Positions 25,362 through 28,611 of a stretch of DNA of 64,000 bases are shown here, piece by piece. Positions within the stretch are counted from its first letter, which is position 1; every line of letters begins with the position of its first letter. A program made the translations under genes and the position numbers. Origin of the DNA: Nannocystales bacterium (GTDB lineage Bacteria > Myxococcota_A > Polyangia > Nannocystales > Nannocystaceae); NCBI GenBank assembly GCA_050633305.1, contig JBOEGF010000013.1:1-64000 (forward strand), written 5' to 3'. A model generated the notes under the pieces. The model did not search any database. It was not told the origin of the DNA and was given only the letters and a program-made list of their open reading frames with translations.

Positions 25362-26132
25362 TCAGACCTTGGAGAACAGGTAGGCCATCTCGCGTGCGAT
25401 CTGCTGACTTCGCTCGTCGTAGGTGGCCGCTTCGTCGACGGTGCCATCGGACATTTTCGGGTCCACGTACGGCAGGGCGATGCGAAGGTCGGAGCCCGCG
25501 ACGAAGGGGCATGCCTTGTCCGCGTCGCTGCAGGTCATCACCGCCACGAATCCTGCCGTGGGGTTGGGAGCGTCCATGTAGCGTTTGGAGAACGCTTGTT
25601 GTGGAGCGAGGGCATCGCCGAGCACCACGGCGTAGCGCGGGTTGTCGCTCTTGGCCGTCTGCGCAGACACCTCGATGCCAAAGCCCGCGCGCTGCAACGC
25701 CGCCACCGCACGGGGGTTGAACGCCGTGGCCTCCGTCCCGCCCGAGAACGTCTCCACACCGTCGAGACCAAAGTACGCCGCTGCTGCCGCGGCCCACAGC
25801 TCGCCCATGTGGCTACGCCGGGAGTTGTGCGTGCAGATGAAGAGGAGCCGCGCAGTCTCACCGGCCGCTCGGCGCTCGGCCACGTGGCGAGCGATGCGGT
25901 CGAGTTGAGCCCGGCGGTCTTCGGAGACATCCGTCGCCTCGCTGACAGCGGCATCGAGCGAGGCTTGCAGCGCGGAGCCAAGCTGAGGCGCTTCGGCTGT
26001 TGCCGCCGCGGAAGCGGCCTCGGGAGTCTCGAGCGTCGCAGGCTCGACGGGAGGAGGCGTCACTTCGGGCGGCGTGCCCCCGCAACCCGCTGAGGCCACA
26101 CCGATCAGGAACACGAGGCAGCGGATACGCAT
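25362..26132 (-). CDS. Low-molecular-weight tyrosine phosphatase / ArsC-like protein with lipoprotein signal
   Basis: FICTHNSRRSH P-loop, SGGTE, MTCSDADKACP, DPK; N-terminal SAGC lipobox. Confidence 0.85.
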   Translation of the reverse strand: MRIRCLVFLIGVASAGCGGTPPEVTPPPVEPATLETPEAASAAATAEAPQLGSALQASLDAAVSEATDVSEDRRAQLDRIARHVAERRAAGETARLLFICTHNSRRSHMGELWAAAAAAYFGLDGVETFSGGTEATAFNPRAVAALQRAGFGIEVSAQTAKSDNPRYAVVLGDALAPQQAFSKRYMDAPNPTAGFVAVMTCSDADKACPFVAGSDLRIALPYVDPKMSDGTVDEAATYDERSQQIAREMAYLFSKV

Positions 26133-26236
26133 ATCGGCGGCATCCTCCCCGACGCTCGGGACACTCACGCAACGCTGATGTCACAACAGATTCTCAACGA
26201 CACGGCGGCCCCCGCCCGCCGACGGGTTCGAGCACG

Positions 26237-26310
26237 GGCACCAGCTCAGAAACGGGAAATCCAGGCGCCAGCTCGGAAACGGGGAGTACAGGCACCAGCT
26301 CGGGAACGGG
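26237..26310 (+). repeat. Three 27-bp-period repeats encoding a T/S/G linker remnant
   Basis: GGC(A/G)CCAGCTC(A/G)G(A/G)AACGGG at 26237, 26264, 26291; reads GTSSETG / GASSETG / GTSSGTG then GEICTDN; no plausible start. Confidence 0.7.
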
Positions 26311-26361
26311 AACGACGGGCGAAATCTGCACGGACAACGATAAGGAAGTGTTGAACAGGGA

Positions 26362-26435
26362 GGTGCACGACGGGACTCGAACCCGCTACGTCGCGTTCAC
26401 AACGCGACCGCCATTCCTTCTGGCTGCCCGTGCAC
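26362..26435 (-). tRNA. tRNA-His(GUG), atypical
   Basis: Acceptor GTGCACG/CGTGCAC + C73; D stem GCCA/TGGC; anticodon arm TCGCG-TTGTGAA-CGCGA; T arm GCGGG-TTCGAGT-CCCGT; extra connector bases, no encoded G-1 or CCA. Confidence 0.75.
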
Positions 26436-26437
26436 AG

Positions 26438-26510
26438 CACCGGCGATGGGAATCGAACCCACGCCTCTCGAGTCAAAGTCGAGCGTCCTAGACCACTGGA
26501 CCACGCCGGA
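26438..26510 (-). tRNA. tRNA-Gln(UUG)
   Basis: TCCGGCG/CGCCGGT (U1:U72 mismatch) + G73; D stem GTCC/GGAC; CTCGA-CTTTGAC-TCGAG; GTGGG-TTCGATT-CCCAT; no CCA. Confidence 0.9.
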
Positions 26511-26511
26511 A

Positions 26512-26583
26512 TAGGGGTGGCGGGAGTCGAACCCGCAGCTTGATGCGTCCAAGGCACCCGTCTCACCCCGAGACTTCACCCCT
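26512..26583 (-). tRNA. tRNA-Pro(UGG), atypical
   Basis: AGGGGTG/CACCCCT + A73; D stem GTCT/AGAC; GGTGC-CTTGGAC-GCATC; GCGGG-TTCGACT-CCCGC; A8, A37, A1-U72; no CCA. Confidence 0.8.
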
Positions 26584-26601
26584 TGAGGAAGTCGTGGGGC
26601 C

Positions 26602-26648
26602 GCGACTCACCGAGTCGCCGAACTCCATGCACATGCGATTGCATGTGC
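26602..26648 (-). promoter_or_regulatory. Two hairpins between the leader ORF and the tRNA array (putative attenuator/processing structure)
   Basis: GCACATGC-AATC-GCATGTGC (26629-26648) and GCGACTC-GGT-GAGTCGC (26602-26618); no U tract. Confidence 0.55.
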
Positions 26649-26657
26649 CGTCTGGAC

Positions 26658-26771
26658 TCAGTGCGCGGCGGGTACTGGGGGTTGTGGTTGCTGGTGATGC
26701 ACCACGGGCTGCTGCTGCTCGACCTGGAGACCCAGGGAGCGCAGAGCGATACCGGTGTCGCGCATGACCAT
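26658..26771 (-). CDS. Putative Gln/Pro/His-rich leader peptide (MV)MRDTGIALRSLGLQVEQQQPVVHHQQPQPPVPAAH
   Basis: In-frame ATGs at 26783, 26771, 26765; 15 of the last 22 codons are Q/P/H; directly upstream of the Pro, Gln and His tRNAs. Confidence 0.7.
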   Translation of the reverse strand: MVMRDTGIALRSLGLQVEQQQPVVHHQQPQPPVPAAH

Positions 26772-27112
26772 GATCGACAACATGACCGCGCCAGCCGGAC
26801 GGCGCCACAAAAAAGTGCGAGCACGTTTGCCCGCCGGTCCCTCAAACCGCGCGGTGGCGTACTCGGCCGACCGGGAGCGGACAATGAGGAAGCACAACGA
26901 CCCCTTCGTCATCGTCGGCCTGCTCGCGCGCTGTCCTTGCGAAGACTGCGAAGGCGACAATCCGGGTGGGACCCCGTCGGGCTGGATCAAGCACGGGGGC
27001 TCGCGGTCGGTGCTGCGCGGACGGAGCGGGTGTGCAACCCTCAGTTCAACCGCGAGACCGGCGTGCGTTCGCAAGCGTCGTTGGCCACGCCTCGCACAAT
27101 GGACCGGTACGC

Positions 27113-27405
27113 GTGACGGCTTGCAGTAGCATCAACATCGCGGCGCTCCTCGCCGGAGAGTTGACGCCCGACGAGCGCAACGTCGCGGAGCATTACCTCG
27201 ACGGCTGCGCGGACTGCCGCAGGATCGCGGTGGCGCTTGCGGTCCCCACGTCTCGCAGCCTTGCACCCCGTCTGTGCGTCGGTGCCCGCGTCGATCAGTA
27301 TGTCGTCGAGGCGTTTCTGGGGGCCGGGGGCATGGGGGCCGTCTACTCGGCGAGAGACGAAGATCTGGGCCGCCGGGTGGCGTTGAAGGTGTTGGATGCA
27401 GAGAT
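27113..27405 (+). pseudogene. Truncated zinc-finger (zf-HC2) Ser/Thr kinase N-terminus
   Basis: EHYLDGCADCR, LGAGGMGAVYSARDEDLGRRVALKVL, then homology is lost; no HRD or DFG. Confidence 0.8.
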
Positions 27406-27612
27406 TGAGTCCACCGGGCTTGTTTCGCCCAGCGTCGATGTGTTCCTCTCATCACGTGTCTTCCTCGGGGCCTCGGCCGATCTCCTACTCAACGCGCCCC
27501 GTCGGATCTGCCGCGAGCAAGGTGATGCCACCACGTGTTCGGACACATCTTCTCGCGCCGCCATCCCCATTCACAACATCGTGTTCGGACTGAGGATCGG
27601 GGGTACGTTCCT

Positions 27613-28611
27613 ATGACCTTCATTCTCAGCGTTCGATGCTTCGTCAGAGGGTCCGCCTCCCCCGCGAAGCGACGTACGCTCACGGCAGTAGGATTTGCCC
27701 TGGCGGCCGTGTCGACCGGCTGTTCTCCTGCCGCGCCAGCACAAAAGATCGCTGACCCGGAGACGCCGAAACCAGTGGAGTCAGCTCCGTGCCCTGACAC
27801 GCCGCGCGACTGTGGACCGGTTCGCGAGGGGATCATGTGTGACGACTGCGGCGCCGACGAAGTCTCGACGCGCGCCCCCGGCCCTGTGGTGGTGCGTTGT
27901 TTGGAGCACGCGCTTCGTTGCGGTCCCGACGCGGAGGAGAAACAGAAATGGGCCACCCAAGGGCCAGGCGCGGTCCCGGCTTGGACGGACCACTTCTACA
28001 TTCGTGCAGCGAGCCTCCTCGGCACGCTGAAGCCAGCGGGTACCGAAGCTCTGTTGCGCTCCCGTGCCTGGGCCCTACCCGCGCGAGCAAGCGAGGCCCG
28101 TGACCGAGCGCTTGGCATTCCCGACCAGTACGCCAGAGAGCGCGTCCCGACCCCAGCCGGCCGTTCTGCGTGTGGTGCACTCCCGCAGGCTCAAAACGTG
28201 ACCGATGCAGCACTCCACTGCTTTCAGTCGCGTGTCAAACCCGCGGTCCTCGACCTGGAGCGGCGGGTCCGGGACCACCACGACGCTGCGAGTGACTACC
28301 CCGAAGGGTTCTACCGCTTCGGCAGCGGGCCCTACGTCCGCGAGACGTACGCCCTCCCCCCTGTCGTAGAGGTCGACCAACGACCGTGGCCCCAGGTCGC
28401 GCGAGCCCTGGAGCAGCTTCCGCCAGATTTGCTGAAGTCCACCACGGCGTTGGGAGCGCTCGAGACGGTGAGTCCGGAACGCGATTGGATCGTGGTGAAC
28501 GTTCGCCTGCGAAGCCCCGAAATGCCCGTCGATGCGGCGACGCACCTGCAGTTCGTGATCGACGAAGAGACGTGGACGACCGTGTTCGTCTTCCGCGTCG
28601 TCAACGGCTGA
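27613..28611 (+). CDS. Hypothetical lipoprotein
   Basis: KRR..hydrophobic..STGC lipobox; long ORF. Confidence 0.65.
   Translation: MTFILSVRCFVRGSASPAKRRTLTAVGFALAAVSTGCSPAAPAQKIADPETPKPVESAPCPDTPRDCGPVREGIMCDDCGADEVSTRAPGPVVVRCLEHALRCGPDAEEKQKWATQGPGAVPAWTDHFYIRAASLLGTLKPAGTEALLRSRAWALPARASEARDRALGIPDQYARERVPTPAGRSACGALPQAQNVTDAALHCFQSRVKPAVLDLERRVRDHHDAASDYPEGFYRFGSGPYVRETYALPPVVEVDQRPWPQVARALEQLPPDLLKSTTALGALETVSPERDWIVVNVRLRSPEMPVDAATHLQFVIDEETWTTVFVFRVVNG

Follow-up and report, generated by a model that had tools for sequence, protein, structure and literature searches.

Leader-peptide attenuators of amino-acid operons are known from hisL, trpL and pheL and from the multivalent thrL and ilvL, and Rho-dependent leaders are represented by tnaC and by Salmonella mgtL with its Pro codons. 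Here we analyse a candidate sensor of this general kind in a 64,000-nucleotide window of a Nannocystales bacterium genome (assembly GCA_050633305.1, contig JBOEGF010000013.1, positions 1 to 64,000). It is a minus-strand cassette of about 450 nucleotides (nt) consisting of a putative promoter, a short sensor open reading frame (ORF) rich in Gln, Pro and His codons, a structured spacer and three spare transfer RNA (tRNA) genes for the same amino acids. In mycobacteria, leaderless poly-Cys attenuators form a 'ribulon' in which a duplex hides the ribosome-binding site (10.1101/834739, accessible part). The Anabaena trn operon is, in the available text of PMC8421152, a single unit with 26 mixed genes whose promoter is repressed by TrcR; the terms 'leader' and 'attenuat' are absent from that text, and its Discussion presents the regulation of single tRNA species in bacteria as largely open. 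The accessible part of PMC8297930 reports tRNA 3'-end changes under azithromycin and describes no leader control. Our search of open-access PMC and bioRxiv literature, with subscription papers and supplements outside its scope, found no leader-controlled tRNA genes.

The locus is real and conserved, and most likely it represents a regulatory variant of ribosome-mediated attenuation that acts on tRNA genes. By comparison with related loci, the ORF is kept in frame, stands first in the predicted transcript and, over its last 20-25 codons, tracks the amino acids of the downstream tRNAs. The cassette appears to be one of several per Nannocystaceae-like genome, each devoted to a different amino-acid group, and we consider it quite probable, judging from sequence comparison, that a ribosome-stalling sensor raises the output of matching backup tRNAs.

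Leader ORF and spare tRNA genes of the window

The original prediction described a Gln/Pro/His-rich ORF 74 nt ahead of a tRNA trio, and both spacing and counts stand as described. The leader ends with a TGA at 26660-26658, 74 nt before tRNA-Pro, and its last 22 codons include 7 Gln, 5 Pro and 3 His. Compared with 3000 random windows of the genome, this enrichment is beyond chance (empirical P 0.0003); at least 15 such residues in the final 25 codons are found in just 10 of the 187,151 stop-ended frames of the genome that holds the window, G000 (11.0 Mb, 66% GC, 92% complete). The start had been placed at 26783. The equivalent ATG is out of frame in one homologous cassette (L128) and lies inside a conserved -10-like hexamer, so we favour the ATG at 26771, 6-7 nt past the -10-like block and in frame in all five leader-bearing cassettes, as the probable start. 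The leader would then count 37 codons, presumably on a leaderless transcript. The peptide has no Pfam match.

Genes for tRNA-Pro, -Gln and -His directly downstream, also part of the prediction, were recovered by ARAGORN and Rfam with gaps of 1 nt (Pro/Gln) and 2 nt (Gln/His); tRNA-His is borderline, its score falling just under the RF00005 cut-off of 29 bits (Table 1). Since canonical genes for Pro(UGG), Gln(UUG) and His are present elsewhere in G000 (on C11, C10 and C1, respectively), the copies in the window are extra. They are divergent, with a mean identity to core tRNAs of 0.59; tRNA-Pro has A1-U72 and A37, and tRNA-His has A37. These supernumerary isodecoders have a patchy distribution, as the 71 other family genomes yielded a single strong match to the cassette (G001), with the same tRNA-Pro; four metagenome contigs (L127-L130) carry it as well. 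Absence of CCA does not mark a spare array, as had been supposed, for 74 of the 93 core-like tRNA genes in the set described below also lack it.

Conservation of an ORF upstream of homologous arrays, which had been proposed as a check, was found in four of the five homologous loci (G001, L128, L129 and L130); in L127 the leader is lost and the anticodon changed to TGC. In a five-way alignment read by eye, both gaps within the ORF measure 3 nt. Leaders followed by tRNA-His contain 3, 3 and 4 His codons, whereas those of G001 and L128, two close kin in which tRNA-His is absent, contain 1 and 2. The tRNA-Pro body is conserved among homologs with changes that keep pairs, and the flanking DNA of G000 and G001 is not alike. 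In L129 (L129:390-656) roughly 190 nt that include a long hairpin are inserted into the tRNA-Gln, apparently duplicating or restoring the 5' part of the tRNA. A pattern search for the tRNA-Pro returned no viral contigs and two genome contigs, in one of which (L143) no tRNA was called; a match to the cassette in G009 was discarded because there is no tRNA there.

The putative -35 and -10 blocks of the window hold a fixed spacing while the 10 nt after the -35-like block vary, and the CATGNT hexamer also occurs 17 nt behind TTGACA before the Leu/Leu array of G000. We infer that the two blocks act as a promoter; a sigma-70 consensus scan of 26000-27300 found none, so that for the window this assignment is argued from conservation only. 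The terminator-like hairpin with its T run may insulate the unit from upstream transcription.

Table 1. Features of the cassette and its surroundings, in window coordinates
Feature	Position	Strand	Evidence
Apparently truncated ORF with a CxxC stretch resembling a zinc finger and the beginning of a Ser/Thr kinase domain	26966-27616	plus	By eye; no Pfam match
Terminator-like hairpin and T run just upstream of the putative promoter	26817..26834	minus	2 sites against 0.9 expected (weak); T run kept in homologs
Putative -35 hexamer TGGCRC, 17 nt from -10	26802..26807	minus	Conserved block, fixed spacing, 5/5 leader-bearing cassettes
Putative -10 hexamer CATGNT, holding the ATG of 26783	26779..26784	minus	Conserved block in homologs
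Leader ORF, 37 codons and TGA, probably leaderless	26658..26771	minus	In-frame conservation among homologs
Hairpin within the ORF, just before the Gln run	26712..26744	minus	RNAalifold consensus; 12/13 pairs never vary, no covariation evidence
Stop-codon helix, 5' strand (last 3 codons and stop)	26657..26668	minus	RNAalifold, footprint folding
Non-conserved 8-base-pair hairpin within the variable insert that the stop-codon helix encloses	26629..26648	minus	
Stop-codon helix, 3' strand, near-invariant 15-nt block	26600..26614	minus	Conservation, pairing in homologs
Short hairpin immediately ahead of tRNA-Pro, a possible alternative that would exclude the stop-codon helix	26590..26607	minus	By eye, inferred; weak in L130
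tRNA-Pro(UGG), DNA anticodon TGG	26583-26512	minus	ARAGORN; RF00005 52.8 bits
tRNA-Gln(UUG), DNA anticodon TTG	26510-26437	minus	ARAGORN; RF00005 64.9 bits
tRNA-His(GUG), DNA anticodon GTG	26434-26362	minus	ARAGORN; RF00005 28.9 bits
Low-molecular-weight phosphatase/ArsC-like lipoprotein gene, downstream of the array	25362-26168	minus	PF01451, E 7.8e-6

Leader composition and array content across the family

From 72 family genomes we took the loci most similar to three G000 arrays (best 30, 14 and 17 loci), and we added the multi-gene tRNA clusters of G044, G020, G075 and G055, genomes chosen for showing arrays, and all G000 tRNA clusters except seven calls judged spurious. The 205 clusters reduced to 159 distinct ones, of which 154 had at least 300 nt of unmasked upstream DNA. 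For each cluster the best ORF with its stop 25-260 nt upstream was scored over its last 25 codons against random windows treated alike. Clusters were split by identity to the core tRNAs of G000, a division that does not use the leader. Relaxed ARAGORN calling (-ps85) gave 5928 calls, which were too noisy and were left unused.

In this blind test P<0.05 was reached by 39 of 73 divergent leading clusters, by 1 of 59 core-like clusters and by 2 of 22 internal ones; codon enrichment thus co-varies with the array, a second proposed check with a positive outcome. Among the controls, mismatched disjoint amino-acid sets passed in 129 of 4040 cases and reverse complements in 5 of 73, and label permutation gave 0/20,000. 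When each of the 38 amino-acid sets was represented by one cluster, P was 0.002 in all 200 draws. The matched types include Ser/Tyr, Ser/Trp, Ser/Ala, Ser/Gly/Ala/Trp/Cys, Pro/Tyr, Pro/Leu/Tyr, Leu/Arg, Thr/Met, Cys/Gln, Phe/Met, Asp/His, Glu/Asn, Phe/Lys/Asn/Thr and Lys/Asn. A wider look by eye found matched leaders at L070, L117 and L121, and none at L086, L100, L102-L104, L113 and L115.

The match also follows changes of the array between relatives. In G000 the leader of the Ser/Ser/Ser/Tyr array has a Tyr codon; in G003 and G005, members of the same genus with Ser/Ser/Trp arrays, this Tyr codon is gone and a Trp codon has been gained two codons earlier. Such re-tuning within one genus argues for current selection on amino-acid identity. 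A MERFT start is common to the leaders before Lys/Asn (G000) and Phe/Met (G020).

Follow-up tests used 38 of the 39 passing clusters, L109 being omitted because its best ORF resembles the end of an ordinary upstream gene; L070, where the rule chose the wrong ORF, was also dropped from the promoter and position tests (37 clusters), and the tRNA-folding test scored 37 of the 38. The motif TTGAC-16/17-(T/C)A precedes 33 of 37 leaders, occurs in none of the 37 spacers and is found in 39 of 3000 random windows; past it, the first ATG/GTG is in frame with the leader in 26 of the 33. A transcription start between ORF and tRNA, which the original prediction had named as refuting, is not what this motif indicates. 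Like attenuators, these units have a short ORF first behind the promoter, as judged by the motif in 33 of 37 and in the window by the conserved blocks only, and their distal codons correspond to the amino acids carried by the downstream tRNAs.

The proposal of a codon-sensing leader holds for composition, which matches the downstream tRNAs, but not for exact complementarity between codon and anticodon. Over the 38 leaders, exact Watson-Crick matches number 220, fewer than the 284 expected, and exact tuning was rejected on this count. The leaders of G001 and L130 keep CAA despite a tRNA-Gln(CTG), anticodon CUG, and the L130 leader is without any CCA. Nor are the A-ending codons of the window's leader as uncommon as had been thought: by the codon frequencies of 4551 long ORFs of G000, CAA makes up 27% of Gln codons (P of at least 2 in 7 = 0.60), and CCA, at 10% of Pro codons, is only borderline (P = 0.086). 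Taken over the set, A/T endings are twice enriched in cognate codons (155 vs 77.5) and not in the other codons (93 vs 103.5). The leaders thus appear to use slow codons of the right amino acids rather than the exact codons of the array.

G37 is the target of TrmD methylation (m1G37). A37 is present in all three divergent tRNA-His, in 23 of 30 divergent Leu(CAG) and in only 9 of 27 divergent Pro, and the core copies of His and Leu(CAG) have G37. Many arrays are grouped by first codon letter (CNN: Pro/Gln/His, Leu/Arg; UNN: Ser/Tyr/Trp/Cys; ANN: Lys/Asn/Thr/Met), with Cys/Gln, Phe/Met and Glu/Asn as exceptions; first-letter groups of this sort parallel the position-37 modification classes.

Several further observations concern single arrays and their surroundings. 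Matches to the Ser/Tyr array were found in 12 of 50 family genomes and in 1 of 249 others in the class sample, by a DNA search that would miss unrelated arrays; the sole match outside the family, L134, is a single tRNA-Ser without a matching leader. Upstream of the Ser/Tyr array of L010 (G066) tandem repeats fill the DNA, and no matched leader lies within 330 nt. The Arg/Arg array L006 (G000:C47:19107-19350) comes with a TTGACA promoter and an Arg-poor ORF of 48 codons; Arg runs stand in a different frame, which has neither a start nor a stop before the tRNA, as in a decayed or frameshifted leader, and the Arg(GCG) gene has G33. In the Ser/Gly/Ala/Trp/Cys operons of L028 and L032, a second, internal ORF rich in Trp and Cys stands directly before the last Trp-Cys pair. 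A long mixed array of about 21 tRNA genes in L113 (G055), without a matched leader, resembles an L-array. Among odd tRNA bodies, the Asn(att) called by ARAGORN at G000:C32:152651-152730 has a Gln/Glu-type body with an enlarged anticodon loop, and two divergent tRNA-Leu at G000:C47:18510-18666 have short variable arms, the Leu(GAG) with U37; the tRNA calls for the G000 assembly include neither a canonical Gln(CTG) gene nor a long-arm Leu(GAG) gene. Around the cassette of the window, three short direct repeats lie between the ArsC-like lipoprotein gene and tRNA-His, at about 26230-26310, and the HNH nuclease gene that often accompanies long mixed L-arrays was not found among the five neighbouring ORFs scanned.

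Spacer structure and tRNA output

The predicted stop-codon helix spans an insert of very different length among homologs. Its core of 7 base pairs is paired in 35 of 35 cells, with one compensatory and two one-sided changes. In folding with a ribosome footprint, the helix was predicted in all five cassettes at 0.73-1.0 as long as the ribosome was absent or had not passed codon -6; once it had reached codon -4, the value was 0-0.14, a positional effect that follows largely from geometry.

On the mechanism we propose, a ribosome on the leader would report how well Gln, Pro and His codons are decoded. A stall in the tract, at least six codons before the stop, would let the stop-codon helix form and the tRNAs be produced; a ribosome reaching the last four codons would melt the helix and free the conserved 15-nt block, with low output as the result. 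The signal would most likely be the loss of a working housekeeping tRNA by cleavage, missing modification or uncharging, and the divergent copies would replace it. Because more tRNA does not cure amino-acid starvation, damage or under-modification seems the likelier signal; the A37 of divergent His and Leu(CAG), less so the figure for Pro, is in line with this.

The output step is the weakest link of the model. No intrinsic terminator was found on the minus strand between the leader stop and tRNA-Pro. Of the 38 spacers, 2 have a hairpin with a U tract; such a hairpin was seen at 23 of 49 ends of tRNA clusters in G000 and in 21 of 500 random windows. TIGR00767 (rho) exceeded its cut-off in none of six family genomes (G000, G002, G020, G044, G055 and G075; drafts of the 84-96% class and one single-contig genome), and PF07497 was found in none of three family genomes and is present in G038, of another family; a family-wide loss of Rho is possible. 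Rho-dependent attenuation was rejected because rho was not found in the six genomes. An RNase J road-block is not general, the match in G000 being below cut-off and none being found in G055 and G020, and a hidden ribosome-binding site is not applicable to downstream genes that are tRNAs. G000 and G001 had suggested an anti-tRNA hairpin, with the spacer paired to the tRNA-Pro 5' end; this was likewise rejected, as L128 and L130 do not keep the segment and a general test over 37 arrays gave no effect (naked 0.34 vs shuffled 0.22, P 0.27). Since the U-tract terminators found elsewhere in G000 are missing here and rho was not found, we favour an output through the fate of the precursor (its folding, processing or decay) over non-canonical premature termination, and give the former a little less than an even chance. 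More tentatively, the cassettes may together form a modular surveillance of the tRNA pool, with a sensor ORF and replacements for each codon group, in which the stalled ribosome would control maturation or survival of the pre-tRNA and some A37 copies would bypass m1G37.

A number of results weigh against this account or limit the evidence for it. The test was missed by 34 of the 73 divergent clusters. Eight Glu/Lys and Glu/Gln pairs in the divergent class are probably housekeeping, and the class also contains arrays broken up where tRNA calls were missed. Besides the window, G000 has five more divergent units, of which two match (Leu/Leu, P 0.007; Lys/Asn, 0.025), Ser/Ser/Ser/Tyr is borderline (0.054), and Arg/Arg (0.12) and Gly (0.25) are without a matching leader. 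The set was partly collected by similarity to G000 arrays, and its relatives are non-independent, so that kinship inflates the counts. The placing of cognate residues supports the sensor, their share being about 0.5 in the last 20 codons and 0.04-0.08 beyond codon -30, with 0.14 expected, but this profile is partly built in because leaders were chosen on their last 25 codons. The window's own leader is one of the four without the TTGAC promoter form. Covariation in the stop-codon helix is not significant (194 of 500 shuffles; five sequences are too few). In favour of the sensor, leader ends with their spacers are more stable than controls (mean z -2.8 vs -0.9), although tRNA genes overlooked by ARAGORN in long spacers may inflate the difference. 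Pairing of the stop region is not general across arrays (0.43 vs 0.38 shuffled, P 0.24), nor is ribosome-dependent folding of the first tRNA; the latter differs among the five cassettes, and shuffled controls disrupt the tRNA too. No common switch was found across the arrays.

Alternative explanations and described systems

A sub-case of the preferred sensor would gate transcription through a non-canonical terminator or pause needing neither U tract nor Rho. The geometry is antiterminator-like, with a helix that forms on a stall and melts as the ribosome nears the stop, and both the short alternative hairpin before tRNA-Pro and the structured spacers would suit it; the rarity of U-tract hairpins in spacers compared with tRNA-cluster ends and the failure to find rho make such gating unlikely, though far from negligible. 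The leader might instead be a general sensor of translation stress, responding to antibiotics or any stalling, with a codon match that is historical and a codon identity that is irrelevant now. Exact anticodon matching is indeed absent, and in Anabaena antibiotics that target the ribosome induce the trn operon (PMC8421152, available text). The re-tuning of the match within one genus speaks against it, and we regard a general sensor as improbable.

That the peptide itself is functional, as a small protein or a precursor like those of ribosomally synthesized and post-translationally modified peptides, with the tRNAs co-expressed to supply its biased codons, would explain why the ORF is conserved even in its first half, which is not Gln/Pro/His-rich. 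Homologous leaders, however, change composition with the array, as in the exchange of Tyr for Trp and in the two leaders that share MERFT; no Pfam domain was found, the five neighbouring ORFs scanned include no modifying enzyme, the flanks of G000 and G001 differ, and the bias of cognate codons to rare endings disfavours yield. We therefore hold a functional peptide to be very unlikely. Least credible of all is a low-complexity frame beside pseudo-tRNAs, the product of chance or decay. Signs of decay exist in the sub-threshold tRNA-His, the A1-U72 and A37 of tRNA-Pro, the lost leader of L127 and the interrupted tRNA-Gln of L129, but the pair-keeping changes of tRNA-Pro argue against decay, and chance is strongly disfavoured by the blind cluster test, by the scarcity of equally Pro/Gln/His-rich frames and by the promoter motif before most leaders.

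New here is a chromosomal, family-wide set with natural swaps and without a recognizable terminator. If the sensor reading is true, the cassettes would form a feedback loop in which the ribosome measures the decoding of given codons and calls up the matching tRNAs, and maturation or survival of pre-tRNA would be an output not described for any leader peptide; the failure to find a terminator or rho points to an undescribed output step. The family offers natural swap experiments with a dozen or more sensor types, in units of less than 600 nt that are amenable to reporters, and compact reporters for tRNA damaged by anticodon nucleases, or for modification loss, could be built from the leaders.

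Because the terminator, Rho and hidden-ribosome-binding-site tests all failed, we do not file the cassette with classical attenuators, Rho-dependent leaders or translational attenuators. With the hisL/thrL type it shares a short first ORF, distal cognate codons, the sensing of several amino acids and a predicted helix over the ORF end; it differs in that the regulated genes are tRNAs and not enzymes or synthetases, in having no U-tract terminator and in a design that recurs across one family with a dozen or more amino-acid sets. It resembles mgtL in its Pro-rich leader and the lack of an intrinsic terminator, but unlike mgtL and tnaC it targets tRNA and occurs in a family in which rho was not found in six genomes. 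As in the mycobacterial poly-Cys systems, a sensor ORF, probably leaderless here too, comes first, a stalled ribosome would control a downstream duplex and many independent loci occur per genome (10.1101/834739, accessible part); the downstream genes here are non-coding, so that a hidden ribosome-binding site cannot be the output. With the Anabaena trn operon and L-arrays it has in common supernumerary tRNAs beside a housekeeping set, a patchy distribution and a proposed use in translation stress (PMC8421152 and PMC10272220, available parts), whereas the blocks here are small (three genes in the window), sorted by amino acid and each provided with a matched leader. As far as the available parts of these sources go, the mycobacterial leaderless sensor ORFs are closest to the cassette in layout and the Anabaena trn operon is closest in purpose.
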